DNA of 59,683 nucleotides from an uncultured virus (IMG/VR IMGVR_UViG_2509276001_000001) (lineage: Duplodnaviria > Heunggongvirae > Uroviricota > Caudoviricetes). The position numbers and the translations under genes are program-made. The notes beneath the pieces were generated by a model. The model did no database searches. It was not told the origin of the DNA and saw only the letters and a program-made list of their open reading frames with translations. Of the stretch, positions 1-12,948 are shown piece by piece (the stretch's first letter is position 1; each line of letters begins with the position of its first letter). The stretch lies in IMG/VR virus record IMGVR_UViG_2509276001_000001; one strand, written 5' to 3'.

Positions 1-46
1 GCCATCAGAATCTACCACGCCGTTTTGTTGCTTCGATTGAAGCGAG

Positions 47-118
47 TACCGCATAGGAGTTTCGATCTCCTTCCTGCTGCCTGAGAAGCAGCCGACCTAG
101 CCAGTAGTCGAATGCGGC
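47..118 (-). tRNA. tRNA-Glu(CUC), atypical T-loop
   Basis: Acceptor GCCGCAT/ATGCGGT; anticodon arm GCTGC-TT CTC AG-GCAGC; T-arm GGAG-ATCGAAA-CTCC. Confidence 0.8.
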
Positions 119-129
119 GTTCTTGAAAG

Positions 130-202
130 CGATGGCAACGGGAGTCGAACCCGCAGCGACTTGATAGACAATCAAGCTTCCTTCCCAGAGGAAATTGCCA
201 CC
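130..202 (-). tRNA. tRNA-Asp(GUC)
   Basis: Acceptor GGTGGCA/TGCCATC; CTTGA-TT GTC TA-TCAAG; GCGGG-TTCGACT-CCCGT. Confidence 0.85.
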
Positions 203-219
203 GAAAATGTTTGCACGAG

Positions 220-295
220 GGTGACCAACCGGAATTGAACCGGCGACAAACTCATTCACAGTGAGTCTCTGGAAACCAACACCAGATCTGGCCAC
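220..295 (-). tRNA. tRNA-His(GUG)
   Basis: Acceptor GTGGCCA/TGGTCAC with C discriminator; CTCA-CT GTG AA-TGAG; CCGG-TTCAATT-CCGG. Confidence 0.8.
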
Positions 296-297
296 AG

Positions 298-372
298 CAC
301 CGGAGACTGGAATCGAACCAATGAACTCCTCGTTCAGAGCGAGGTGCAGCGACCAACAACTGCTACTCCGGC
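298..372 (-). tRNA. tRNA-Gln(CUG)
   Basis: GCCGGAG/CTCCGGT; CCTCG-CT CTG AA-CGAGG; TTCGATT loop. Confidence 0.85.
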
Positions 373-393
373 GTTTGGTCTTCAATACATCAG

Positions 394-461
394 CACTCCG
401 TCCGGGAATTGAACCCGACCTGCGAGCTTCAAAGGCTCACGTCGCGACTACGCGCCGGAGA
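394..461 (-). tRNA. tRNA-Gln(UUG), degenerate with short D-arm
   Basis: TGAGC-CT TTG AA-GCTCG; CGGG-TTCAATT-CCCG; mismatched acceptor stem. Confidence 0.65.
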
Positions 462-480
462 GAGTTTTCACAATCAAAAG

Positions 481-552
481 AGTGTCCTGTGGGAGTCGAA
501 CCCACCTAGCCGGATTGGAAGTCCGGAACCTTTGCCGCTCGGCCAAGGACAC
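481..552 (-). tRNA. tRNA-Gly(UCC)
   Basis: GTGTCCT/AGGACAC; CCGGA-CT TCC AA-TCCGG; GTGGG-TTCGACT-CCCAC. Confidence 0.92.
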
Positions 553-562
553 GAAATATGCG

Positions 563-631
563 GAAGCTTGAAGGGCGAGGTGTGAAACGAAGCGATTTAT
601 TCCACACATCTCGCTTCACCCTTCAAACTTC
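563..631. repeat. Heptamer-based inverted repeat (hairpin) in a tRNA spacer
   Basis: GAAGCTT GAAGGGC GAGGTGT ... CACACAT CTCGCTT CACCCTT CAAACTTC; the arms are reverse-complementary. Confidence 0.7.
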
Positions 632-637
632 GTGAAG

Positions 638-709
638 CTCCGGCGGATGGACTCGAACCATCACTCGTCTCCTTAACAGGGAGCCGCCTTACCATTGGGC
701 CACACCGGA
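638..709 (-). tRNA. tRNA-Asn(GUU)
   Basis: TCCGGTG/CGCCGGA; CTCC-CT GTT AA-GGAG; GATGG-TTCGAGT-CCATC. Confidence 0.92.
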
Positions 710-717
710 TTCTGCAA

Positions 718-788
718 AGCGCCCAGTGGGAGTCGAACCCACACTTCCGCCATGGCAAGGCAGCAGGCTACCGCTACATCATGGGCGC
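718..788 (-). tRNA. tRNA-Gly(GCC)
   Basis: GCGCCCA/TGGGCGC; CTGCC-TT GCC AT-GGCGG; GTGGG-TTCGACT-CCCAC. Confidence 0.9.
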
Positions 789-808
789 AAAAATGCATCA
801 CTACCAAA

Positions 809-821
809 TTGTCAAAGATCA
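809..821 (-). promoter_or_regulatory. boxA-like antitermination motif
   Basis: TGATCTTTGACAA on the tRNA strand, close to rrn boxA TGCTCTTTAACA. Confidence 0.55.
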
Positions 822-842
822 ATAACGCCGAAGCGTCTTAAG

Positions 843-913
843 AGCACCGAGCCGGAATCGAACCCGCATCACCTCGTTACGACGGAGGATTCTTGCCGTT
901 AGACCATCAGTGC
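843..913 (-). tRNA. tRNA-Thr(CGU), degenerate
   Basis: GCACTGA/TCGGTGC; CCTCC-GT CGT AA-CGAGG (one mismatch); mismatch in T stem. Confidence 0.65.
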
Positions 914-933
914 TTGTTTCAAAATGTCTCAAG

Positions 934-952
934 TGGGATCGGTGAGAATCGA
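934..952 (-). pseudogene. 3' fragment of host tRNA-Lys(CUU) (att junction)
   Basis: TCGATTCTCACCGATCCCA completes the T-arm and acceptor of the 5' part at 12087-12147. Confidence 0.9.
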
Positions 953-1006
953 GGTTTACTACCAACGGTCCCCACTGGGTCTTTCCTTTTTCTGCCAAGT
1001 CGTAAA

Positions 1007-1078
1007 TGGGATTGCAGGGATTCGAACCCCGACCCGTCTGGTTAAGAGCCAGCGATGCTGCCGTAACACCTCAATCCC
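1007..1078 (-). tRNA. Element-borne intact tRNA-Lys(CUU)
   Basis: GGGATTG/CAATCCC-A; CTGG-CT CTT AA-CCAG; CGGGG-TTCGAAT-CCCTG. Confidence 0.92.
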
Positions 1079-1080
1079 AT

Positions 1081-1111
1081 AAAAAAAGCCCGACGTCTTG
1101 CGACATCGAGC
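1081..1111 (-). terminator. Attenuator-type intrinsic terminator before the element tRNA
   Basis: GCTCGATGTC-GCAA-GACGTCGGGC followed by T7. Confidence 0.75.
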
Positions 1112-1142
1112 GTTGAGGCTTGGACCAACAATGCAACAAATA

Positions 1143-1250
1143 TCACAAACGACGTGGATACACATCGAGCAGACTCAGATGGCCGGCGGATTCACCGCCT
1201 AAGCCGAGCATGCTCTGATTCGTATTTCGTTGTTCTTGTTGCAGTGTCAT
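1143..1250 (-). CDS. Putative 35-aa leader peptide (MTLQ...GG...VYPRRL)
   Basis: Short ORF directly upstream of the terminator; same motif pattern as the ORF at 12832-12948. Confidence 0.6.
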   Translation of the reverse strand: MTLQQEQRNTNQSMLGLGGESAGHLSLLDVYPRRL

Positions 1251-1621
1251 TGAATCGTCGAGTCGCAAAGTCGGTTGTTGATCGTTTTCGCCAACCACAC
1301 GCTGGCGACAGCAGATAAGAAGCCGAGAATCGCGAAAGGTTCGCGGATCATAAAAGAAAGATGCAAAAGAGCAGGCTTTTATTTCATCACTCGCAAAAAA
1401 AGACGCGGCTGCGTCGTGTACCCGCTGCTCGATCTGTGGGGTTTTACGGAGCACCACCCAAACACGCGTTACACGCTGCGACAACCGGCTTCGGTGCCGT
1501 CTCCTGTCGCATACACGAAGGTACTAACAACGCTGGGCTAGGTTGGCCAACCGAAAAGCGGATAGCTCCTCCGCCTGCCCTCAGCGTTTTCCATTGGAGC
1601 GTTTGGATTGGAGCACCAATC

Positions 1622-2197
1622 ATGCGAAAGCGACTATCTTTCTGGGACTTCAATAGTCCTGGCGATGCAACTCAATTTATTACCCAGGCAAATATCAAAT
1701 CTGGTGATCACATAGTTCTAGTGTGCCGAGTTTCTGGATGTGAACAAGGCAGAAGGAATAATCACCATGACCAGGAAGCAGCACTTCGAGAGCTGGTCAG
1801 CAATTGTGACGGGATCGTTGTTGGTGTTATTAGAATCGTCATCTCTGGATTCAACCCGTACTGGCTATCACGAGCAGTTGCACTAGCTGAAGAGCATGAC
1901 GCGAAAATCTTGGCAGAGTCGACGGATCGCCTTATTCGCCATCCTGCATACCATTCAAGCGAATGCCCCGATGCTCAGCCGTCAATCAGTCATTTGCGGG
2001 GCTTGAATGACTGGACAGAGGGTATTGAGTTACTAACGCTGCTTGACCCGAATGCGACGCCAAAAGAAGTTCGCAGCTATCAACGCAAACGCGGCCAACG
2101 AATGAAAGGCAACAAAGGCGGCAGACCACCGACGCCCGCGCACGTTGCTCTAAGGCGTGCAGTGTTGCAAAAACTACGCTCCACCCCATCAGGGTAG
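1622..2197 (+). CDS. Serine recombinase catalytic-domain protein
   Basis: VCRVS..EQ, ISG and ESTDRLIR resolvase motifs; no clear DNA-binding domain. Confidence 0.65.
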   Translation: MRKRLSFWDFNSPGDATQFITQANIKSGDHIVLVCRVSGCEQGRRNNHHDQEAALRELVSNCDGIVVGVIRIVISGFNPYWLSRAVALAEEHDAKILAESTDRLIRHPAYHSSECPDAQPSISHLRGLNDWTEGIELLTLLDPNATPKEVRSYQRKRGQRMKGNKGGRPPTPAHVALRRAVLQKLRSTPSG

Positions 2198-2400
2198 AAG
2201 GGTCGTCGATTTGGTGTGATCGCAAAACGATGATGGACTGGTAAATAACGAGGCGGCATGCCAACGGCGGCGCCCTAATCGGTTCGACAAAACCATTAGG
2301 TTGGAAGCCGGTACTTCACTCAGAATTCGCGAGGGAAAAGTTCTTGAAAACCTGTTATTGCCGCATGCTTCTACTTGGGATTGAAATCGAGGACACATGA

Positions 2401-3633
2401 CTAGGGGGCCAACTCTCGACGCGGGTGGTTCTCAAGTTTGGGGTTAGGAAATTCTGTAATGCAAATTCGTGCTTTCGAGTGAACTGCTGGATGTGGTGCT
2501 CTCACCAACAGAACGCGAGCGTCCGGTTCAAGGGGATTTGTTACTTTCATTGCTTTGTGCTTTTTTGCCAGTTCCACTAGCCGTAATTCTGCTGCACTCG
2601 CGTAATCAAATTTTTCCAAGCTCATTGCAATACTGCAATTAGTCGATTCGTAGAAATCAAGCAACTTCGATGGTGAAACGGGCACAGAATCAGGAGCCAT
2701 TAGCGTCTTGAGTCTTGTGAATTGCTTTATCGAGTCTAGATCGGAATCACGGAGCGGAATATCAAATAGAAGAATCGTTTGTAATCCACGTGCAAACGCG
2801 AAGTTCTCATTAAAGCTACCAGCTTCAAGCTCTAACTCTCGCAGCGTTAGGAATTGGATTTGCTCTATGTCGACTGCCCATGACAGATCGTAAAAGTCCT
2901 GTCTTTCCAATGAAAGGCTTCGGATCGTCGATAGCTCTCCAAGAATCTTCGCTTCCTCCATGCCTATATGGTTGTTTTTAAGCGTGAGGTTCTCGGGTGA
3001 AAGTGCAACCAGCAAGTCCATGTCAACCTGAGCTAGCCGCATCCCGTCTAAAACAATTTCTTCGATATTGCACTTGTCAAGAACAGCGAGGGCTTCGAGA
3101 GTGTCGCGAACGTATTGCCCCGATTCGTCGGAGCATTTGTAGGTGACCGCTGGCGGTTCCGCAGTGAAATCGACATCCACCGTTGAACGGTAGGCTTTGC
3201 TCTGCTTATTCGAGAGAGCGACGAGTACCTCATTCGTACTCAGTTTAACCTTGTACGAAGCCAGTTGCTTCTTGAGATCTTCGAGCACTACCTTGCCCTT
3301 ATCCGCGTTTTCTTTTGCAACCAAGACTTCTTTCTGGAACTTAGATTTTTCAGCGGAGAGTTCTAATCGCTTGGCATCCAACAAACCTGTTTTCCACGTC
3401 ACAAACAAAATCCCTAGACCGATAACGAGTGGGACTAGCTGCCCCAGCGAAATCCTCCAGCTAAACCATCTGTTGGCTTCCTCGATTTGCCTTATCTCAG
3501 CACGCAACTTCTCCTCCTGAAGTTCCCCCAAGCTAACCGACGCTAAGTTTTTGCCAGCTACTCCACCCTCGGTTGGTTCTTCGGCGACCGCATCGACTGT
3601 TGATTCGGGTTCTGCTTCTTCTTGATCTGACAT
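2401..3633 (-). CDS. Membrane-anchored coiled-coil/leucine-rich-repeat protein
   Basis: TM segment LVPLVIGLGILFVTW, coiled coil, then LxxLxL repeats. Confidence 0.65.
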   Translation of the reverse strand: MSDQEEAEPESTVDAVAEEPTEGGVAGKNLASVSLGELQEEKLRAEIRQIEEANRWFSWRISLGQLVPLVIGLGILFVTWKTGLLDAKRLELSAEKSKFQKEVLVAKENADKGKVVLEDLKKQLASYKVKLSTNEVLVALSNKQSKAYRSTVDVDFTAEPPAVTYKCSDESGQYVRDTLEALAVLDKCNIEEIVLDGMRLAQVDMDLLVALSPENLTLKNNHIGMEEAKILGELSTIRSLSLERQDFYDLSWAVDIEQIQFLTLRELELEAGSFNENFAFARGLQTILLFDIPLRDSDLDSIKQFTRLKTLMAPDSVPVSPSKLLDFYESTNCSIAMSLEKFDYASAAELRLVELAKKHKAMKVTNPLEPDARVLLVRAPHPAVHSKARICITEFPNPKLENHPRRELAP

Positions 3634-4070
3634 AAAAACACCTTAATTGTTGAACAAAACCTGCACCTTCATTCTTAGGCTTAATCGTGGCGGAGCAAGG
3701 GCGGGAAAAAGGGGAGCTAGTGAAGACAATTCGCCCTGCTGCAAATGAATGGGCATCGATTCAAGCAGGGCATCCACCTACCGGTATAAATCCTTAGAAC
3801 GCGAGGCGACGCGACCACCTTTCCCCAATCAAAATGGGCAAAACACAGTGATTCAACGCCAAAACCATCTTGAAAGTTTCTTCGCCTTGACTTTGGCCGA
3901 TTGGAGCCAGATACTGATGACATAATCCGTTGCCCTCTTCGTCGGAGAGCACTTGATTCAACCGACCCGCAGCCTTCGCCGGTTTGCGACAACCGAATCT
4001 CGACACCACGGGTTGCTTTCACGGCAATTCTACAAGGCTGATCCATGGCTAAAAAAAGCCGGGTTCAGGT

Positions 4071-4589
4071 GTGCGACGACGCACGCCTGTAACCTCACGT
4101 ACATCGAGTACGACGGTTTCGACTTCCAGTTCTACTGGAAGCACAGATTCCACTTCTAAACTCAAGCCCCGGCTAATCTCCAAGGATACTGCTGAGTCCT
4201 TGGAGATGCTCAGGCAGCACATCGTTCTTGCAGAGCAACACCTTTCGAACATGCCAGGTGCGTACGAACCACGAGCAAAAGTTGATGTTGGAGATCTGTT
4301 TAATGGGTTAGCTCTCATCTTAGATTCCCCCGACTACTTTATGGCACTGAGGGACGACTCGATTCAGATTGTGACCGCAACGTATCTTGGGAAAGAAGAC
4401 GAGTACGATGAACAAGATTCAAAGAGGATCTTAGACTATGGGACTCGGCAGAAGGTAGAGTTCGCGAAGAGAATCCCTGATCTGATTAGAGCCGCAAAAG
4501 AAGCGGAAGGTAATCTGAAATCAGAATCGGATAAAGCGATTACTGATATTCAAGCAGCAATCGACCAATCGAAGGAGTACTACGAATGA
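4071..4589 (+). CDS. Hypothetical protein (true start may be ATG 4045 across an A7 frameshift)
   Basis: 172-aa ORF with protein-like composition. Confidence 0.5.
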   Translation: MRRRTPVTSRTSSTTVSTSSSTGSTDSTSKLKPRLISKDTAESLEMLRQHIVLAEQHLSNMPGAYEPRAKVDVGDLFNGLALILDSPDYFMALRDDSIQIVTATYLGKEDEYDEQDSKRILDYGTRQKVEFAKRIPDLIRAAKEAEGNLKSESDKAITDIQAAIDQSKEYYE

Positions 4590-4726
4590 GTCGTAAACGT
4601 AACTCCAAGCCCAAGCGTCGCAAACGACCTGCCAAGCCAGAAGACCCAGACGTGAAAAAAGAGAAGTACAGGTTTTGGACATCCCTATTTAGTTTCGCCG
4701 GAGTCGTTGTGCGTCTGTTTCTATAA
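4586..4726 (+). CDS. Small basic protein with hydrophobic C-terminus (46 aa)
   Basis: ATGA overlap with upstream stop; MSRKRNSKPKRRKR...FWTSLFSFAGVVVRLFL. Confidence 0.45.
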   Translation: MSRKRNSKPKRRKRPAKPEDPDVKKEKYRFWTSLFSFAGVVVRLFL

Positions 4727-4867
4727 AGCACTTGCAAACTGCCGAGCGGGGACACGCACGCCGTGCCCCGCTGTCAATCGCACGTAACCACCAACGCTCT
4801 CCATACTCGCCCTCCACCGCTCGCACGCTACCAGCGAAGCGACAGGCCGCTCGTTCGCCAGCTAACG

Positions 4868-5116
4868 CTACCACTTGCTGCCGTCGGAGTTGAGTTTAGC
4901 AAGCCTCCGTACCATCTTCGCAGGATCTTCGCCGGTCACCCGCACGATCTCTACAAATTCGATAACGTCGAGTTTACGCTCACCGCGTTCGTATTTTGAA
5001 ACGAATGATTGAGGCCGTCCGAGATACTCGCCCATTTCTACCTGGGTGATGTCGGCAGCAACACGTGCATCGACAAGCATATCTCGCATCAGTTCGTATC
5101 TAACGTCGTCTTCCAT
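4868..5116 (-). CDS. XRE-family HTH regulator
   Basis: ITQVEMGEYLGRPQSFVSKYERGERKLDVIEF. Confidence 0.9.
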   Translation of the reverse strand: MEDDVRYELMRDMLVDARVAADITQVEMGEYLGRPQSFVSKYERGERKLDVIEFVEIVRVTGEDPAKMVRRLAKLNSDGSKW

Positions 5117-5150
5117 TGGTCGCAGATGTCCGAATCAGATGAGATGAAGA

Positions 5151-5212
5151 AACCCAACTCAGGATATCCACTCCTTCAAATATCCCAATACCGGTTTAAC
5201 CCAATATGGGAT
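5151..5212. promoter_or_regulatory. Three 15-bp pseudo-palindromic operator-like sites
   Basis: AACCCAACTCAGGAT, ATCCCAATACCGGTT and AACCCAATATGGGAT upstream of the XRE gene. Confidence 0.55.
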
Positions 5213-5429
5213 AAAAGATCCAAATAGTATCTCATTGAAAATAAATCCGAAAGTTTTAAGACGAGCGATCACAACATCTTATGAACCAAAACGATAAAAC
5301 AGCATCGCTAAACGCCCAAATTTAAAGAGGGCTAACACGATTATAGGACGTGGCACTTGTGTTTAATGCGTTCCGCTTGACTAGTTTTTGGCCACAGTCG
5401 ATTCAACACCGATTTTGGAGTAACAACAA

Positions 5430-5912
5430 ATGCAGAGAAACGAAACACTAGCCCGCGATAAGGAGGCCTGCCAGACAACGAAGGACATCACGTTGTCGCT
5501 TAGCATGAGCGTACCAAAGCGAGAAGCATTGCGAGTCCCAGCAAATCAAGAATTGCGAGTACACGCTCTAGTCCTACTGATCGACACCTTGCTTGAAAAT
5601 TCATCGGCCAAGGACGTGAAGCTGGAACGCACCAACGACAACTACAAAATCGATGACGACATGCCTCCGTTCCAAACAAAGTATTACTGGACAGCAAGCT
5701 ACCACGACGAGTGCCGTGCCAAGCGAGTCGGAGCAATTGCCTACGAGCAGTTTGCTGCACACGCTAGCGATGAAAAACTACTGGCCCCTGTTCTTGATGC
5801 TCTCTCCCATTCCGTGTGGTGCGATGAGGAAGTCTATCAGGGCGACGGTACTTGGTTGCAGTTCCCTCTAGACGAGAACAAGCCAGAGGAGCAGGCAAAC
5901 GTCTCCACCTGA
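5430..5912 (+). CDS. Hypothetical protein
   Basis: 160-aa ORF with GGAG RBS. Confidence 0.65.
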   Translation: MQRNETLARDKEACQTTKDITLSLSMSVPKREALRVPANQELRVHALVLLIDTLLENSSAKDVKLERTNDNYKIDDDMPPFQTKYYWTASYHDECRAKRVGAIAYEQFAAHASDEKLLAPVLDALSHSVWCDEEVYQGDGTWLQFPLDENKPEEQANVST

Positions 5913-6156
5913 TCGATCACCCAACCCAAGCATCACGAGCGATCAAAAGCCCAGACTGTAAAGTTTGGGGTGGTCGATCGAATCGGCTGTGATCGAGCGG
6001 TAAAGCCCGTGGACTGGGGCAACGGGTCATTTTCGATATGCGTAAACCGAATTGTGTACCCGGGCTTTACACCCCTCTTGAGAGGGGGTAGTGTTGGTGT
6101 GGGGTTGGTAGCAGCGTGTTACCAACCGACCACCACAACCACACGGAGCAAGAGAC

Positions 6157-6468
6157 ATGGCCGCCAAAAAGACCACCGCCGCGAAGAAAACAAACGCAAC
6201 GAAAACCACCGACACCAAAACGACCAAGAAGGAGCCCGCAGCAAAAGACAAGCTGGGTTGCCGCGTTGGATCACAGTCCGCAGCGATTAACGCGACGCTG
6301 ACCGCCAAAGCTAAAGACGTTGCCACGATCGCTGAGGCCTCAGGTTGCACTGCCGCCCGTGTGCGTAACCACTTGAGGCACCTGATGGCGAAAGAGCTGG
6401 TTTTCCAAGTCGACGATGGCTACACAACCAAGGCACCAGCCAAGCGTACCCGCAAAGCCGCAAGCTGA
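6157..6468 (+). CDS. Small Lys/Thr-rich winged-helix DNA-binding protein
   Basis: VATIAEASGCTAARVRNHLRHL helix-turn-helix. Confidence 0.7.
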   Translation: MAAKKTTAAKKTNATKTTDTKTTKKEPAAKDKLGCRVGSQSAAINATLTAKAKDVATIAEASGCTAARVRNHLRHLMAKELVFQVDDGYTTKAPAKRTRKAAS

Positions 6469-6649
6469 GCCGGTTTGCCGGGCGTGTAACGCTACCCAGT
6501 TAGCGAGCACGCCAAACGACACCCCAACGCCGCCAAACGATTTGCCGGCCCCTTACAAGCGATCGACCAACAGCCCTGCCTAACACGCGGGGCTGTTGTC
6601 GTTGATGGAGTACATGAGAAATCCCTTTATCCAAACAGGAACAACAACG

Positions 6650-7282
6650 ATGACCAAGAAAAAGAAGTACGTCGCCGTCTACATCCGCGTCAGCACGGTG
6701 GGACAGAACGAAGCAGGACAACGAAAGGAATTGGAACGCTGGGTCGACAACCACGGAATCGAGAACGTGCGTTGGTACGTCGACAAGGAATCCGGCGACA
6801 GCCTCGATCGACCAGCGTTCAAGAAAATGCAGAGAGCGATCTTCGATGGGAGGGTTAGCACGGTGGTTATTTGGAAGCTCGATCGACTCAGCCGCCAGCT
6901 ACGCGAAGGCATAGACACGATTTGCGATTGGTGTGACCAGGGCATTCGCATCGTAGCGGTAACACAGGAGATTGATTTCCACGGGACGGTCGGAAAGATC
7001 ATCGCATCAGTGCTGTTGGGCATTGGGCAGATGGAGCAAGAGACTAGGCGTGAACGCCAAGCAGTCGGAATCAAAGCCGCACTCGCTGAAGTGAAGGCAG
7101 GCAAACGCAAACCTTGGGGCGGTTCCAAACCGGGCACACGGAAGAAGCTGACCGCTGACAAGATCGAGATCATCCAAGACATGAAATCGAAGAACAAACC
7201 GATCGCCGCTATTGCCCGTGCTGTTGGTGTGTCGCGACCAACCATCTACAGCGTTCTAAATGAGCCCACGGCTCCGGTGTAA
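6650..7282 (+). CDS. Resolvase/invertase-type serine recombinase
   Basis: YIRVST..Q, ESG, DRP, WKLDRLSR; C-terminal HTH IARAVGVSRPTIY. Confidence 0.95.
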   Translation: MTKKKKYVAVYIRVSTVGQNEAGQRKELERWVDNHGIENVRWYVDKESGDSLDRPAFKKMQRAIFDGRVSTVVIWKLDRLSRQLREGIDTICDWCDQGIRIVAVTQEIDFHGTVGKIIASVLLGIGQMEQETRRERQAVGIKAALAEVKAGKRKPWGGSKPGTRKKLTADKIEIIQDMKSKNKPIAAIARAVGVSRPTIYSVLNEPTAPV

Positions 7283-7370
7283 AGAATCGCTCTCGACAGA
7301 TTTACAGAAGAGGGTAGTTTGCTTACCGCTTGCTCGCAGACACCAACCCAGATGGGAGGTAGATACACCG

Positions 7371-7736
7371 ATGGCAAAGCACAAAAAGAAGCCTGTTGAG
7401 ATCGCCAAAAAGTTCGTGCCCAAGTTCTGGGAGGACATTGACCAGCGTTGCTCCATCGTTCGCGAAGTGCGTACACGCTACGCAAACCTGATTGAACAAG
7501 CGGGTGCCGATAGCGTTCAAAAGACGATGCTCGCTCAGCGTGCCGTCTTTATCAACATCCGACTTGAGACGATGGAGTGCGAAGCAGCCCAGGGCGGTGC
7601 CTTCGATGAAGGCGTTTACACCCAGATGGTGAATACGCTGACGGGACTGCTGAAGTCGCTGGGCCTGAATCGACAACAGGCCGACGCAACCATGAACCTG
7701 AAAGCATACGTCAAGCACGCGGGAGCCAAGCAGTGA
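7371..7736 (+). CDS. Putative terminase small subunit
   Basis: Helical 121-aa ORF coupled (GTGA overlap) to terL; ...LLKSLGL motif. Confidence 0.55.
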   Translation: MAKHKKKPVEIAKKFVPKFWEDIDQRCSIVREVRTRYANLIEQAGADSVQKTMLAQRAVFINIRLETMECEAAQGGAFDEGVYTQMVNTLTGLLKSLGLNRQQADATMNLKAYVKHAGAKQ

Positions 7737-9169
7737 GCCGCATCAGCATCATCGACGCTTGCGAGGACGAGAACCTGTTCTTGCCATACCTTGGGAACGA
7801 CCTCAAGACATGGCGACGCTGGCTCGTAATGCTCCGAACTCTCTATGGCCTTCATCCCAGGAAATGGACATCGAAGGAACGCAAACTCATCAAGCATTGC
7901 ACTGGACGTGATGCCAGCACGCTTCCAACCGAAGGCTTCGCGACCAGTGTTTGCTTGACCGGCCGACGCTCAGGCAAGTCGAGAATAGCCGCAGTGATCG
8001 GTGCCTATGAAGCGGTCCTCGCTGGGCACGAATCGAAACTCTCGCCCGGCGAAACCGGCGTCGTCCCAATTATTTCGCCAACGAAACATCAAAGCCGCAT
8101 CGTCAAGAACTACCTGCGTGCCATCTTTGATGCGCCCCTACTTAGGAGCGAAGTCGCCGGGGAGACTCGCGAAGGGTTTGAGCTAAAGAACGGAACGCGA
8201 ATTGAGATCCTTGCTGGCGACTGGAGGACCATTCGAGGATTTACGCTCTTAGCGGCAGTAATTGATGAGGCATGCTTCTTTCAATACGAAGCTGATTCCA
8301 AAGTCCGCTCAGACACTGAACTTGTCAGGGCGATCCAACCATCGCTTGCAACAGTCGGCGGACGGCTGAGTTTGATTAGCAGCCCGTACGCCAAGAAGGG
8401 CTACTGCTACCAAGCCTGGAAAAAGAACTTCGGGAACGACACCGGGCGGACGCTCGTTTGGAACTGCTCAAGTCGGACGATGAATCCGACGCTGCCGCAG
8501 TCAGTTGTTGACGATGCAATGGCTGAAGATTTGCAGGCGGCCAAGTCAGAGTATCTAGGTGAGTTCCGCGATGATGTCGTTCAGTTCTTGGATCGTGCGT
8601 TGATCGAACAATACGTCATCCCACACCGCAGCGAACTGCAACCGCGACGCGACAGAGACTATTTCGCATTCGCCGACCTATCCGGTGGACGTGGCGACGA
8701 CGCTGCCTTGGCGATCGCACACCGCGACAGCCGAAAGCTGATCCTTGATTTCGTACGACGATGGCGACCACCATTCGACCCGCGACATGTTTGCGAAGAA
8801 ATGGTTGAGGAACTGAAGCGATTCAGCATTCGCCGCGTCAGGGGCGACAACTACGCGGCGGAATTTGTCGCCGGTGCATTTCGATCGAACGGCGTTCGCT
8901 ACACCAAATCAGAACTGCCCGCTTCGGGCCTTTACCTCGAATTGCTTCCGCGACTATGCAGCGGCGAAATTGAATTGCTCGACAACGAAACACTCATCGC
9001 ACAACTCGCTGGCCTGGAACGAAAGACCCGTTCAGGAGGCAAGGACAAAATCGATCACCCATCCGGCGGACACGACGACGTTGCCAATGCTGTAGCAGGC
9101 GTCTGCGTATCCGCATCCAAACAACGTCAAAGGGTTGGAGCTCCATTCCAACGAAAGGTAACGGCATGA
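7733..9169 (+). CDS. terL: Terminase large subunit
   Basis: Walker A GRRSGKS, Walker B AVIDEA, ISSP, RNase H-like ADLSGGRGD and HDDVANA. Confidence 0.88.
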   Translation: MSRISIIDACEDENLFLPYLGNDLKTWRRWLVMLRTLYGLHPRKWTSKERKLIKHCTGRDASTLPTEGFATSVCLTGRRSGKSRIAAVIGAYEAVLAGHESKLSPGETGVVPIISPTKHQSRIVKNYLRAIFDAPLLRSEVAGETREGFELKNGTRIEILAGDWRTIRGFTLLAAVIDEACFFQYEADSKVRSDTELVRAIQPSLATVGGRLSLISSPYAKKGYCYQAWKKNFGNDTGRTLVWNCSSRTMNPTLPQSVVDDAMAEDLQAAKSEYLGEFRDDVVQFLDRALIEQYVIPHRSELQPRRDRDYFAFADLSGGRGDDAALAIAHRDSRKLILDFVRRWRPPFDPRHVCEEMVEELKRFSIRRVRGDNYAAEFVAGAFRSNGVRYTKSELPASGLYLELLPRLCSGEIELLDNETLIAQLAGLERKTRSGGKDKIDHPSGGHDDVANAVAGVCVSASKQRQRVGAPFQRKVTA

Positions 9170-9651
9170 ACATTCTGTCAATTCAAAGCAACATCGACAA
9201 GTTTTTCGATGAACACGGCAAATACGTCACAACGGGAGCCAACGGAAGTTGGTTCCTATTCGAGGACGGTGCCATGTACGAGAACGTTCCCTCGCTCATG
9301 GGTTGGATGAAGGAGCCACCGGAAGATCCGTTGGAGCGATGGACATTGATCGCCCAATACCGCGAAATCCGACTTGCGAACTCGGTTGACGAGTTTGATA
9401 GGGAACACCGCCGCTTGGACAAGGACAACTACGCATGGCGAGATGCTGAAAAGAACTTCCTCCGCTTAGAAAAGCTCAAGGAGAAAGTGAAAAAGCAAAA
9501 GCGGTCGCTCGCAACGGCAACGCGGAAACGCAACAGACTCGACCCGAAGTGGATTTCGCCAGAAGAGCATCTCAAGCATGCCAAAGAACGAGATCGCAAC
9601 GAAGGACGAAAAGCAAGCTTCAAAAACAAACTTAAGAAATTCCAAGTCTAG
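9166..9651 (+). CDS. Hypothetical coiled-coil protein
   Basis: 161-aa ORF overlapping the terL stop. Confidence 0.65.
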   Translation: MNILSIQSNIDKFFDEHGKYVTTGANGSWFLFEDGAMYENVPSLMGWMKEPPEDPLERWTLIAQYREIRLANSVDEFDREHRRLDKDNYAWRDAEKNFLRLEKLKEKVKKQKRSLATATRKRNRLDPKWISPEEHLKHAKERDRNEGRKASFKNKLKKFQV

Positions 9652-9663
9652 GAGACATTAGAG

Positions 9664-10221
9664 ATGACCAGTATCCGAAGAATGACATTTGAGTCGCACG
9701 GCACTGTCGGCGTCGTTGAAGGGCCCTCGGCGGGCGTTGATCAGTTTCTACGCAACGCACACCCGAACGCGAATCGCGGCAAGTCAAAGTTTGTGAATGC
9801 GACAGACCAGCAACTTGTGAACAACGGTGGCGACACGGTGAAGGTAACGACTTATGAACCCGTTGCATCAAAGTCAGAGCCGCTCGGCACACCTTCAATC
9901 AACTCGCTGTTTGATGAGCCGCCAGTGGTGAGCGAATCGGTACTTCAACCGCTCGACTACCAAACGACCGTGGCAGCTCAAGTGCAGCCACCCACGAAGG
10001 TATCACGACCACCGCTCCGCATCGGTAATTCGAGTCCAGGTTTGCGGCTACCGACGATTAACGATCTGTTTGACAAGCCCGCTGAGACGCCCGGTAACGA
10101 GCGAGCACCCGCTAACTCGACAACCGAGCGGGGGCCGCAACACAACACGCGACGAGCGATGACAAAAGGCGGCGAGCCGCTTGGGTTGCCAACGCTCTTT
10201 GAGACAGGAGATCAGCCGTAA
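9664..10221 (+). CDS. Hypothetical Pro-rich protein with three short repeats
   Basis: GGAG RBS; EPLGTPSINSLFD / PGLRLPTINDLFD / EPLGLPTLFE. Confidence 0.6.
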   Translation: MTSIRRMTFESHGTVGVVEGPSAGVDQFLRNAHPNANRGKSKFVNATDQQLVNNGGDTVKVTTYEPVASKSEPLGTPSINSLFDEPPVVSESVLQPLDYQTTVAAQVQPPTKVSRPPLRIGNSSPGLRLPTINDLFDKPAETPGNERAPANSTTERGPQHNTRRAMTKGGEPLGLPTLFETGDQP

Positions 10222-10458
10222 GTGGAGACCCGGCACGTTGGGAACCGTGCCGGATTGAGGCGACTGCTGATGGATCGGCCCTTTGGGCATCCTTCAAGCG
10301 AGAAGTCGGCAGTCGTCTTTCTATTGACTAGAGATTTCAGTTTTTAATGTGGGTGGCACGGCTTCGGCGTAGCTACCAGAGTCGGGTTCATTTTCCTTTG
10401 ACCGATTGAACCGGCCACCCACACTTTTTCAAATCGGTTAAAGGAAGGTCAACGTCAG

Positions 10459-12113
10459 ATGACTGCTAAACGAAAACTTAAAAACGCTGTGCTTTACCTG
10501 CGGGCGAGCAGCAAGAAACAAGATACGTCGGTTGCCGAGCAGCGTGTTGCATTGGAGAAGTACGCCAAAGAGAAAGGCTATAAGATCGTCGATGAATATG
10601 TCGACGATGGAATCAGCGGGGATGACACTGAGAACCGCTCAGGCTTTCTGCAAATGAGAGAAGACGCTGCATCACATAGGTTCCACGTGATCTTGTGTTG
10701 GGATCAAGATCGATATGGTCGATTCGATTCAATTGACGCTGGCTATTACACAAAACCGATCCGTGACGCAGGTGTTTCGCTCGAAACAGCAAACGAAGGC
10801 TTGTGTGACTGGGAGGACAGCATTGGCCGATCGATGTACGGGTTGAAACAGGAAGGCAAGCATCAGTTCCTGCATGACCTAAGCCGGAACGTGACACGCG
10901 GAATCATCGAGTCCGCCAAGTCTGGTAGCTGGCATGGCAAAGCTCCCTTCGGCTACGAAATAGTTGGCGAGCGTAAACACAAACGTCTTGAAGTCGTCCC
11001 AGGGAAATCAGCGATCGTGCAACGCATCTTTCGTGAGTACGTCCAAGAAGGAAACTCGATGAATCAGATCGCAAAGCGACTGACCGCTGATGGCATACCC
11101 ACATCAACCGTAAAGAAGAAAAATGGGATTGCGGTTCTGTACGATTCATCTTGGAGAACCGAGCATACGTCGGAGATCGTGTTGCCAATAAACAGACGAG
11201 AGCGAAATACAATCACATCCAAGGCGAAGAAGTGGTCGCTGGCTCAAAGCAAGGCAAGAATGATCCCAAGGATTGGATCATCGTCGAAGGTACGCACGAA
11301 GCAATCATCGACCCCGAAACATTCGCCAAGGCACAGGCGGAACGGGCCAACGGCACAAAACGAAACAACCAGCACCCGCCCGAATCCAATCCCTACCTGT
11401 TTACCGGAGTGCTTCGCTGTGGCTCGTGCGGTGCAAACATGCACGGTGAGAAGCAAACGTCAAACGGTCGACGCTTTTACGAATGCAGCGAACAAAAGAA
11501 AGACCGAAATGCTTGCACTGGATCGAAGATTCCGCAGGACAAATTGATTGAAACCATCGTCGAAACGATTGACCAAGAGTTCGGAAGCAAATTGATGGGG
11601 CGGTTTTGCGGAACCAGACAGGGGTTTGATAGACGCCTCGACCAAGCTAGCGACTTGATTGCGAAGCTTGAGCGAATGTTGCTTCCACCCAAATCAGCGA
11701 AGGTGAATTTAGCGTCTCTGAAAAAGCAGATTGCGAATTTGGAGGGCAGAATAAAGACTGCTAGACGAAATCTTGCCGCGATCAATGATCCAAAAAACAT
11801 CCCTGCCATTGAGGATCAGATTCGCACCTGGGAATCAAATTGCGACGAGCTTCGGAAGAGTGTCACCAATCAACCGAATGAGAAAACAATCCGTGCTCGA
11901 GTGCGAGAGATTTTCCAAGCACTGGCCGAACTACAAACGCAGGATGAAGACTTGGTTCGTAGAGTCGCCAAACAAATCGACAAGATCGTCATACGCTGTG
12001 GTCGAAGCGGCAAGAGGGGGAACGGAATTCGCTATCACTTTCGATGCGGCGAAATTCACTTTAATCGAGTGGGGGCGGTTGGTAGTGAATCGAACTCACA
12101 TCGCTCGGATTAA
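10459..12113 (+). pseudogene. Large serine recombinase (integrase), frameshift near 11110
   Basis: YLRASS..Q, DDGISG, DQDRYGR, APFGY; second frame continues WDCGSVRFILENRAYVG, HEAII, Zn ribbon CGSC..C..C and coiled coil. Confidence 0.92.
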
Positions 12114-12147
12114 GAGTCCGATGCATTACCTTGTCTGCCACAATCCC
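12087..12147 (-). pseudogene. 5' part of split host tRNA-Lys(CUU)
   Basis: GGGATTG...TCGGA-CT CTT AA-TCCGA...GTGAG-TTCGATT; T stem and acceptor are not restored by element sequence. Confidence 0.9.
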
Positions 12148-12172
12148 ATGTGTCGTCGTTGTTTCGTTTCAG

Positions 12173-12245
12173 TCGGCGTGGCGGGAATTGAACCCGCGAC
12201 CGTCGCCTTATAAGGACGCCGCTCTCACCCCTGAGCTACACGCCG
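12173..12245 (-). tRNA. tRNA-Ile(UAU)
   Basis: CGGCGTG/CACGCCG; GCTC/GAGC D stem; CGTC-CT TAT AA-GGCG; GCGGG-TTCAATT-CCCGC. Confidence 0.85.
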
Positions 12246-12257
12246 ATGCGTAGCCAA

Positions 12258-12352
12258 TGGGGCCGAAGGGAGTTGAACCCTCACCTACACGACGACCAAC
12301 GCTGCGCGTCGGTGCCCGAAGTCCGTCATGCTGCCAGTTACACCACAGCCCC
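12258..12352 (-). pseudogene. tRNA gene (probably Lys) with a hairpin inserted in the anticodon loop
   Basis: GGGGCTG/CGGCCCC acceptor and intact T-arm; anticodon arm is 21 nt too long. Confidence 0.75.
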
Positions 12353-12428
12353 GATTTTCAGTCGCGGCTATGCGTTTCAATCGCAGTGCAGGCAGCATGT
12401 TGTTTTCCTTTCGTATCGTTGTCGTAAG

Positions 12429-12500
12429 TGGTAGCCCTGAGGATCGAACTCAGCGCGACCCGCGTATCAGGCGGATTTGGGCGACCAGCCCTCGACTACC
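12429..12500 (-). tRNA. tRNA-Ile(GAU), short D-loop
   Basis: GGTAGTC/GGCTACC; CCGC-CT GAT AC-GCGG; CTGAG-TTCGATC-CTCAG. Confidence 0.8.
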
Positions 12501-12517
12501 GTTGTCGTTTCAAAAAG

Positions 12518-12590
12518 TCGGACACCTCGGAGTCGAACCGAGACCCTCCTGGTCCCAAACCAGGCGTGCTTCCATCTGCACCTGTATCCG
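12518..12590 (-). tRNA. tRNA-Pro(UGG)
   Basis: CGGATAC/GTGTCCG-A; CCTGG-TT TGG GA-CCAGG. Confidence 0.9.
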
Positions 12591-12647
12591 ATGTTGTTCG
12601 TCGTCTTCGCCGCGGACGATTCCGTCGGCGCATATCTTCCTTGTCAG

Positions 12648-12719
12648 TGGGCCGGGAGGCGCTCGAATCCTCGTCTGCGGTTCTTCAGACCGCCGCTAGA
12701 CCGTCTCAGCTACCAGCCC
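12648..12719 (-). tRNA. tRNA-Phe(GAA), first gene of the array
   Basis: GGGCTGG/CCGGCCC; GCGGT-CT GAA GA-ACCGC. Confidence 0.85.
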
Positions 12720-12762: not shown

Positions 12763-12796
12763 AAAAAAGGCTCAGGTGTCTGCGTGACACCGAGCC
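12763..12796 (-). terminator. Attenuator-type terminator upstream of the tRNA array
   Basis: GGCTCGGTGTC-ACGCA-GACACCTGAGCC followed by T6. Confidence 0.8.
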
Positions 12797-12831
12797 TTCA
12801 TGAAGAAGTCGTTCGCTAATGAAAGCGAGTG

Positions 12832-12948
12832 TCACATCAGACGCGGATACGCCGGGGCATTATCTGTATTCAACGGTTGCCCGCCGAACGCATAGCCTTC
12901 GTGTATCTGTTCGAGTCGACTGGATTGAATATTCAATTGTAAAAACAT
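12832..12948 (-). CDS. Putative 38-aa leader peptide (MFLQ...GG...AYPRLM)
   Basis: Short ORF ending about 35 nt before the terminator; homologous pattern to 1143-1250. Confidence 0.6.
   Translation of the reverse strand: MFLQLNIQSSRLEQIHEGYAFGGQPLNTDNAPAYPRLM

Follow-up and report, generated by a model that had tools for sequence, protein, structure and literature searches.

The first 13 kb of the IMG/VR record IMGVR_UViG_2509276001_000001 (59,683 nt; the whole stretch is called the window here) contain a minus-strand tRNA array of a Pirellulaceae bacterium (Planctomycetes) that, according to ARAGORN, is interrupted by 11 kb of protein-coding DNA. The interruption is an element with a large serine integrase, which has split a host tRNA-Lys(CUU) gene and which carries, just inside its left end, an intact tRNA-Lys(CUU) gene behind a short leader open reading frame (ORF) and a terminator. 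The reading that we favour, and that we consider reasonably probable, is that this cassette of leader ORF, terminator and tRNA-Lys(CUU) substitutes for the lost tRNA and represents a serine-integrase counterpart of tRNA-dependent lysogeny.

The element splits a host tRNA-Lys(CUU) gene

The host gene is present in the window as two separated pieces.

934..952, minus strand: 3' fragment of the host tRNA-Lys(CUU), on the host side of attL, with half of the T-loop, the 3' strands of the T-stem and the acceptor, and the discriminator (script join, BLAST, relatives)
12094..12147, minus strand: 5' three-quarters of the host tRNA-Lys(CUU), with the acceptor, D arm, anticodon arm, variable region and 5' strand of the T-stem (script join, relatives)

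An earlier note on this DNA, made from its letters alone, had claimed that these two pieces rebuild a tRNA-Lys(CUU). Joined by script, they gave a full cloverleaf tRNA-Lys(CUU) in ARAGORN that is 100% identical to the intact gene of the related locus L023, which confirms the claim. The empty attB, which the earlier note had proposed to look for in related genomes, was searched for with a 30-nt piece of the 5' part of the split tRNA, and 27 loci were found in 19 Pirellulaceae genomes. The gene is unbroken in 26 of these loci, where the T-arm and the 3' end follow without interruption, exactly as reconstructed; the remaining locus, L025, has a different 3' part and is the only one of the 27 outside arrays of similar gene order. 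In the BLAST comparison of the window with the 27 loci, the alignment ends at 952 and restarts at 12087, with an overlap of 7 bp, and the interior of the element has no match of at least 150 nt in any of them. The element therefore spans 953-12093 (11,141 bp), and its empty site is present in the relatives.

Nothing is duplicated at the insertion, and the host tRNA copy is therefore destroyed. ARAGORN calls no tRNA at attR, where positions 12080-12147 reach a borderline Rfam score (30.9 bits, threshold 29), in agreement with the earlier claim that the tRNA's 3' end is not regenerated. As in tRNA-dependent lysogeny, a host tRNA gene overlaps with the attB, and neither attL nor attR restores a functional tRNA.

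Two further observations concern this neighbourhood in the relatives. At ~5850-6060 of L025 there are successive tRNA 5' fragments, of Lys(CUU) and then of Trp, each cut in the T-arm and with no surrounding array; they look like remnants of earlier insertions of this kind. In L001, L005, L008, L014, L022 and L027, a palindromic insert of ~70-90 nt, rich in TAGC-like repeats, lies just 3' of tRNA-Lys(CUU), possibly as a small mobile repeat that exploits this same neighbourhood.

Attachment sites and the serine integrase

953..978, no strand: P' arm of attP, at the element's left end (21 of 26 positions complementary to the P arm about the GA)
12066..12093, no strand: P arm of attP together with the shared core (12087-12093), with the attR GA crossover at 12092-12093 (BLAST, arm symmetry)
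10459..12113, plus strand: large serine integrase with Resolvase, Recombinase and Zn-ribbon domains (Pfam, PHROG, public-run contigs)

At attL the shared core occupies 946-952 and the GA crossover 951-952; on the tRNA strand, this GA corresponds to T55-C56 of the T-loop. The shared core is 7 bp long in the window and consists of the GA only in the related element L048. The attP arms are complementary at 21 of 26 positions around the central GA, compared with a mean of 6.7 (standard deviation 2.9) at random positions of the window, 0.95% of which reach at least 18. An attP with inverted arms around a central GA, described before with 19 of 22 positions, is thus upheld. The site has the properties of a large serine recombinase site, i.e., imperfect inverted arms, a central dinucleotide and no duplication beyond the shared core.

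Two ORFs of the window, 10459-11547 and 11151-12113, jointly carry the Resolvase (PF00239, E 9.7e-24), Recombinase (PF07508, split over the two ORFs) and Zn-ribbon (PF13408, E 2.4e-14) domains, which identifies the product as a large serine integrase; it also matches PHROG 95 (integrase). The two frames meet in an A-run, with a -1 break near 11118. One more A after 11118 was found in the contigs of three of four public runs (X1, X3 and X5, not X6), and these runs also have single homopolymer letters at 1394, 4050 and 12402 that the window lacks. Because the extra A restores a single frame and other homopolymers differ as well, we attribute the break to an assembly error; the gene is taken to be intact, and the possibility of a pseudogene was rejected. 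The homologues of this integrase have open frames of 558-602 aa. ORFs 3717-4046 and 4049-4318 are probably parts of a single minus-strand gene, separated by the missing letter at 4050. Judged by its domains and by the site, the integrase would perform attP x attB recombination at the GA of the tRNA T-loop.

The integrase ORF extends through the P arm and the crossover and has its stop codon in the host tRNA fragment (12066-12113). Since it crosses attR and terminates in host sequence, the integrated and excised forms must encode different C-terminal residues. In the related elements L043 and L047, the integrase alignment also ends at or beyond the crossover, and their integrase ends seem to differ likewise between the two forms. 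No attP circle joint was seen in the public-run contigs; contigs drop rare forms, so this result is uninformative either way.

An intact tRNA-Lys(CUU) lies behind a leader just inside attL

46..913, minus strand: nine array tRNAs downstream of the insertion (ARAGORN, Rfam; order as in L023)
1006..1079, minus strand: element tRNA-Lys(CUU), intact cloverleaf, discriminator A (ARAGORN; Rfam 49.1 bits)
1081..1111, minus strand: terminator-like hairpin with a run of seven U (U7), containing leader segments 3 and 4 (terminator scan)
1143..1250, minus strand: element leader ORF, 35 codons (ORF comparison)

The element tRNA lies 53 nt from the crossover, 31 nt past the 22-nt arm given in the earlier note, and is co-oriented with the nine host tRNAs at 46-913. 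ARAGORN and Rfam both recognise it, so the earlier claim of an intact, divergent tRNA-Lys(CUU) just inside the left arm, directed outward into the host tRNAs, stands. It is 59% identical to the host tRNA-Lys(CUU), and 93%, 88% and 75% identical to the tRNAs carried by the related elements L043, L047 and L046, respectively. These cargo tRNAs form a group of their own, in which they are mutual closest relatives (75-93% identical to that of the window), and they are nearer to the array Lys(UUU) type (69-74%) than to the array Lys(CUU) type (52-59%). Their anticodon loops are ordinary as judged by eye. A tRNA of the cargo type is absent from the element-free genomes G001 and G002, and the tRNA-leader module as a whole, whose presence in element-free relatives the earlier note had named as evidence that would count against it, is lacking in the 27 loci and in these two genomes.

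The terminator in front of the tRNA has a 10-bp stem (1088-1111), and its U7 run ends 2 nt before the tRNA. Four segments were recognised in the leader, at 1161-1170, 1150-1156, 1102-1111 and 1088-1097. Segments 1 and 2 are located in the last codons of the leader ORF and can pair with each other; for segment 2, the 5' arm of the terminator is an alternative partner. The tRNA and the leader form a block (window 1007-1254) that is common to the window and L043, with 76% identity over 248 nt, and the leader ORF is also conserved with L047.

Related elements in Pirellulaceae

A survey of 401 sampled Pirellulaceae genomes revealed eight with a homologue of the C-terminal half of the integrase. The six closest integrases are 57-62% identical to that of the window in the N-terminal catalytic half and 28-45% identical in the C-terminal DNA-binding half. 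All six are encoded inside tRNA arrays, by inserts of 10.0-12.1 kb that share the module of small recombinase, 158-aa ORF, large terminase subunit (TerL) and integrase. GA is the central dinucleotide of the window element and of all five homologues for which both ends are available, and their attP arm symmetry ranges from 13 to 21 of 26. The junctions of the homologues were read by eye; automated joining followed by ARAGORN is noisy, as any two tRNAs join at the T-loop. The seven elements are as follows.

Window: breaks Lys(CUU); carries Lys(CUU) at attL
L043: breaks Lys(UUU); carries Lys(CUU) at attL
L047: breaks Lys(UUU); carries Lys(UUU) at attL
L046: breaks Gly(GCC); carries Lys(UUU) at attL
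L045: breaks a different Lys(CUU); no cargo tRNA
L048: breaks Trp(CCA); no cargo tRNA
L044: breaks Lys(UUU); left end off the contig

A tRNA-Lys is thus found at attL in four of the six elements with both ends, the window included, 38-62 nt inside the element and always co-oriented with the array. A Lys gene is the one broken in five of the seven elements; only ~2 of 32 array genes are Lys genes. Lys(CUU), Lys(UUU), Gly(GCC) and Trp genes have all served as targets of the integrase group, whose DNA-binding half has meanwhile diverged to 28-45% identity.

The TerL module was found in ten more of the 401 genomes (L202-L211) and in many metagenome contigs; most of these copies are accompanied by other integrases and are located outside arrays. 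The small serine recombinase, the 158-aa ORF and TerL (L202-L211, L052-L066) define a wider family of terminase-bearing islands. A TerL profile detected only relatives of at most 36% identity in IMG/VR. Among the metagenome and viral TerL loci of at least 5 kb (89 of 141), L066 alone lies in a tRNA array. Its element was set aside: the serine integrase is not of the same kind, direct repeats of 16 nt are present, and no tRNA is split, 19,001 trial joins having yielded none. Homologues of the N-terminal half of the integrase at ~50% identity occur in the order in 23 of 401 genomes, and the nine that were examined have no tRNA nearby. Genus-level searches (1, 3 and 23 genomes) gave no further family member.

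A similar leader precedes the host array

12763..12948, minus strand: leader of the host array (26 related loci; terminator by eye)

The leader of the host array contains an ORF at 12832-12948, with 38 codons in the window, and a terminator at 12763-12796, a hairpin with a U-run that is located ~43 nt before tRNA-Phe. Conservation across genera is high in the 330 nt preceding tRNA-Phe. In L006 and L007 the sequence of the terminator stem differs and, as judged by eye, the stem is kept. The leader ORF is intact in all 26 loci (25 distinct sequences), with a length of 35-43 codons. The six distinct gap runs inside it are all multiples of three (6, 6, 3, 15, 3 and 3 nt), which gives it a frame-type coding signature; gap runs outside it are 1, 1 and 1 nt upstream of the ATG, and include 1, 2, 5, 7 and 14 nt downstream of the stop. 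Its UGA stop codon lies inside a conserved strand that could pair with the terminator's 5' arm. This competing long-range pairing is what the minimum-free-energy fold of the leader shows (z -4.2), and the conserved strands are invariant.

The leader ORFs of the three elements have 35, 35 and 29 codons and the same Tyr-Pro-(Arg/Leu) ending. Host and element ORFs together end in an aromatic residue or Ala, Pro, Arg/Leu/Pro, Arg/Leu (His in L027), one or two residues and UGA. A covariance model built from 25 host leaders matches the element leader of the window at 1081-1173 with 23.9 bits (E ~3e-4), whereas the best score in a control of 886 kb of other DNA was 17 bits. For the divergent host leaders of L044 and L045 the model gives 22-23 bits. 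The earlier claim that the element has a leader ORF and terminator like those of the host array thus stands for the window, with moderate support. Taken together, the two leaders can be read from their sequences as putative ribosome-dependent attenuators.

Several results count against this reading. With the covariance model, the element leaders of L047 (11.3 bits) and L043 (6.7 bits) stay within the background, although they lie at the expected place, and a sequence-only nhmmer profile of the host leaders misses all three element leaders. The host leader ORF has no third-position bias (17, 21 and 19 variable sites at the three codon positions), and its variant codons comprise 12 synonymous and 61 non-synonymous ones. 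However, a frame that is kept without conservation of the peptide is what one expects if being translated is what matters. A consensus scan found no sigma-70-like promoter at either leader; planctomycete promoters may differ. The leader ORFs contain no run of regulatory codons, and their peptides are mixed; Lys codons are lacking in two of the three element leader peptides and one is present in that of L043.

Does the element-borne tRNA replace the lost gene?

Insertion at the GA in the T-loop duplicates nothing and destroys this copy of the host tRNA, and the integrated cassette comes to lie in line with the operon, exactly at the place of the broken gene. If the cassette does substitute for the lost gene, the element tRNA may be expressed from its own attenuator-controlled unit and decode AAG instead of the lost gene, and transcripts that read through the element terminator may also feed the distal host tRNAs. 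A ribosome reaching the UGA would cover the strand that competes with the terminator, and transcription would stop; slow translation of the leader would lead to read-through. Compensation is favoured over unrelated cargo because five of the seven elements break a Lys gene, the cargo is always tRNA-Lys, and the cassette is always in line with the operon. Of five related genomes checked, three have no copy detectable by BLAST besides the array-type tRNA-Lys(CUU).

A number of findings weigh against replacement. Of the four carriers, only two have a cargo anticodon identical to the broken one; one of the others matches in amino acid and one does not. The elements of L045 and L048 hold no tRNA according to both ARAGORN and Rfam, and their left ends have no nucleotide similarity to the leader-tRNA cassette. 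Two or three copies of tRNA-Lys(CUU) are present in 6 of the 19 related genomes, and G033, in which Gly(GCC) is broken, has a second Gly(GCC) gene. In G053, in which Trp is broken, no other array-type tRNA-Trp was detectable by BLAST, which a divergent stand-alone gene could escape. The public runs add to these doubts. In three of four of them, a short contig joins 945 to 12087 as an unbroken tRNA-Lys(CUU), at about one third of the depth of the element contig and with two mismatches in its 51-nt left part. Because of these mismatches in the left flank, we take it to be a second array copy, and its interpretation as an excision product was not adopted; an element-free subpopulation is a possible source. 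A 6,919-nt contig of a paralogous, diverged array is present in runs X1, X5 and X6. The host probably keeps another intact tRNA-Lys(CUU) copy, in a second array.

Given the mismatched and cargo-less relatives and the redundancy of arrays, compensation is not obligatory, and retargeting seems to have outrun the cargo. The survey proposed earlier, for a co-carried isoacceptor matching the target, accordingly gave a divided answer: a tRNA-Lys is carried by four of six elements, the exact match holds in two of these four, and two of the six carry none. The claim that the element compensates with a full gene fits the window itself, where a CUU gene is broken and a CUU gene carried, and is weakened by the mismatches in the family and by the probable second host copy.

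A broader form of the replacement reading, which we hold only tentatively and regard as rather doubtful, is that the Pirellulaceae array has an attenuator of its own and that the element brings a portable copy of attenuator and tRNA-Lys as an 'operon patch', which would restore both the decoder and distal transcription and enable target hopping. The translated leader attenuator would then raise transcription of the array tRNAs when ribosomes lag.

An unlikely, though not far-fetched, alternative is that the tRNA-Lys is cargo for the benefit of the element or of a helper phage, its place at attL being incidental; it could serve as a spare tRNA-Lys against a host anticodon nuclease or tune codon use. 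This idea, also raised in PMC10865867 with the mention of PrrC, which cuts tRNA-Lys-TTT, is consistent with a cargo that is always tRNA-Lys whatever gene is broken, including Gly(GCC) in L046, with the separate lineage of the cargo tRNAs (52-59% identical to the host Lys(CUU)), and with the other copies that the host appears to keep. However, counter-defence does not require a tRNA within 62 nt of attL and co-oriented with the operon, as is seen in all four carriers. The preference for Lys targets (five of seven) and the resemblance of the element leader to the host array leader also argue against it, as do the lack of a defence or nuclease gene in the element (PADLOC, NCBIfam) and the ordinary look of the anticodon loops.

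Markedly less likely still is the possibility that the cassette mainly relieves polarity: the 11-kb insert would separate the ~25 distal tRNAs from the promoter of the array, and an outward copy of promoter and leader would re-drive them, with the tRNA as a passenger. The cassette does face outward, no minus-strand terminator lies between 1006 and 913, the leader is similar to that of the host array, and leader and tRNA are conserved as one block between the window and L043 (76% over 248 nt). The terminator, however, abuts the tRNA, so read-through must be conditional, and the sigma-70 scan identified no promoter; two members of the family persist in arrays without the cassette, and arrays may have internal promoters. 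Finally, it is very improbable that the tRNA and leader are an inert relic, such as host DNA captured in an earlier imprecise event: the cassette is missing from two relatives, but the cloverleaves of four elements, 7-25% divergent, are all intact, their substitutions preserve the stems, three elements maintain the frame of the leader ORF, and no donor is evident, the element-type tRNA not being found in the element-free G001 and G002.

Other genes of the element

1531..1600, plus strand: int-alpA RNA motif RF02996, upstream of a 191-codon ORF (48.5 bits, threshold 35.8)
2401..3633, minus strand: cargo ORF of 410 aa, possibly leucine-rich-repeat-like, as a lead only (Atlas <0.8, TM ~0.5)
4868..5116, minus strand: HTH_3 (XRE/CI-type) repressor-like gene, divergent from the rightward operon (Pfam E 1.2e-7)
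6157..6468, plus strand: winged-helix-turn-helix ORF, a weak lead below threshold (Pfam TrmB, E 0.0041; with NCBIfam, E 0.0016)
6596..7282, plus strand: small serine recombinase/invertase (Pfam, PHROG)
from 7260, plus strand: 158-aa ORF, possibly a small terminase, as a lead only (Atlas 0.90)
7733..9169, plus strand: large terminase subunit (PHROG 2, E 3.7e-28)
9166..10221, plus strand: two ORFs of 161 and 185 aa without assigned function (conserved in four and two elements, respectively)

TerL is 52-70% identical in the six homologous elements, and the winged-helix-turn-helix ORF and the small serine recombinase are both conserved in the family. The 191-codon ORF (1622-2197) behind the RNA motif has a weak Resolvase N-terminal match (Pfam E 0.098), and the 410-aa cargo ORF has no match in Pfam, PHROG, PADLOC or NCBIfam. 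No capsid, portal, tail, replication/primase or defence/nuclease gene was recognised in the element with Pfam, PHROGs, PADLOC and NCBIfam. Since an integrase, a repressor and a terminase are present and no capsid genes are recognisable, the element appears to be satellite-like. The int-alpA RNA motif was found ~450-600 nt inside the left end of three elements, namely that of the window, L043 (6763-6827) and L066 (2022-2091).

The host tRNA array

12172..12719, minus strand: five array genes upstream of the insertion (ARAGORN, Rfam)

The upstream genes are Phe, Pro, Ile(GAU), a 95-nt gene derived from tRNA-Lys(UUU), and Ile(UAU); the nine downstream tRNAs at 46-913 are Thr(CGU), Gly(GCC), Asn, Gly(UCC), Gln(UUG), Gln(CUG), His, Asp and Glu(CUC). 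The window thus contains 14 host tRNA genes of an array that is cut at the window start, and the syntenic array of L023 has 32 genes in 5.4 kb. A long tRNA array has been defined as at least 20 tRNA genes at a density of at least 2 per kb (PMC4758250), and we class the host array among them.

The derived gene, 95-97 nt long, occurs in the window (12258-12352, minus strand), L023 (5758-5852), L019 (6247-6341), L007 (5712-5808) and L048 (18386-18482). It keeps the acceptor, D and T arms of the array tRNA-Lys(UUU) and lies at the usual place of that tRNA in the array. In place of the anticodon loop and the 3' side of its stem it has ~22-24 extra nt, which form a hairpin of their own with a variable loop, and ARAGORN reads a four-letter anticodon. 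Since the Lys(UUU) place is taken by this derivative, the element tRNA is the only ordinary lysine tRNA left in the array of the window.

A tRNA-Ile(UAU) lies beside tRNA-Ile(GAU) in the window (12172-12245, minus strand) and in most related arrays. Such a tRNA is unusual in bacteria, in which AUA is mostly read by a lysidine-modified CAU tRNA. In the 6,919-nt contig of the paralogous array, 639 nt separate tRNA-Gly(GCC) from tRNA-Ile(GAU), compared with ~500 nt in the window minus the element.

Comparison with known systems

In tRNA-dependent lysogeny, as described for the actinobacteriophages Fionnbharth, LeBron and Gaia (Guerrero-Bustamante and Hatfull 2024, PMC10865867), tyrosine integrases act on core sequences of 8-17 bp, and the cognate tRNA carried by the phage is required for lysogeny; Lj965 is also mentioned in that report. 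The element of the window resembles the phages described there in that the attB lies in a host tRNA that is not rebuilt, a whole tRNA of the same isotype (in those phages often tRNA-Lys-TTT) is carried, and close relatives differ in tRNA carriage. It differs in its integrase, a large serine recombinase whose 2-bp crossover lies in the T-loop, and in being an 11-kb element without capsid genes in a multi-copy array, whereas the reported systems are complete temperate phages that target single essential tRNA copies. Here the tRNA follows an attenuator-like leader and is aligned with the operon at attL, and the isotype match is not strict across the family. The requirement for the tRNA was shown in the actinophages (PMC10865867), whereas compensation in the present case is a proposed role. 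The principle of replacement is already published, and its serine-integrase form, for which no report was found in open-access full text, is a new variation on it.

The T-loop is one known sublocation of integration into tRNA genes (tDNA). Classical tDNA islands, which have tyrosine integrases, also target tRNA genes (Islander, PMC4383910; Williams 2002, cited in PMC12884075). They are described as restoring the gene through a 3' part copied within attP, whereas nothing is duplicated here.

A118, in comK, and SPbeta are elements with large serine integrases. To our knowledge, the targets of the known large serine integrases are mostly protein-coding genes. The present integrase shares with them the set of domains, an attP of ~50 bp with imperfect inverted arms, the central dinucleotide and the disruption of the target; unlike them, this group is centred on the near-universal T-loop of tRNAs. 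PhiC31 and Bxb1 are further members of this class of integrases (named in PMC12884075).

Leader-peptide attenuators are known from the trp, his and pheL operons and from erm leaders. The candidate attenuators described here resemble them in their short ORF, in a stop codon beside the competing strand, and in a putative intrinsic terminator with hairpins that are predicted to exclude each other. In contrast to these, they would control tRNA genes rather than genes for amino-acid biosynthesis or resistance, and they have no run of regulatory codons.

Planctomycetes are among the phyla listed as having long tRNA arrays (PMC4758250, PMC8421152), and the host array, with ~30 tRNA genes in one operon-like array, is of this type. 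The Anabaena array is described as being induced under translational stress via promoter repeats, whereas the candidate control here is a translated leader with a terminator. Phage-inducible chromosomal islands (PICI) and their capsid-forming relatives (cf-PICI), as described in PMC13612085, resemble the element in size (~10-15 kb), in having an integrase, a repressor and packaging gene(s), and in lacking a full virion module. The element differs from them in that no primase, replication or capsid gene was recognised and in that it carries TerL together with two or three serine recombinases.

If true, the control of a 30-gene tRNA operon by a conserved leader ORF and terminator would be a kind of tRNA gene regulation without a match in the open-access full text searched, where no report of a leader-peptide attenuator on a tRNA operon was found. 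The retargeting among at least four tRNA species, in which only the DNA-binding half diverged, provides a natural series for the study of large-serine-recombinase specificity, and the integrase group, whose crossover lies in the most conserved five bases of tRNAs, is of practical interest. Replacement of a target tRNA had previously been shown only for actinophages with tyrosine integrases. That it probably also occurs in a different phylum, in a small satellite-like element with a serine integrase, points to the carrying of a tRNA as a general answer to integration without duplication.

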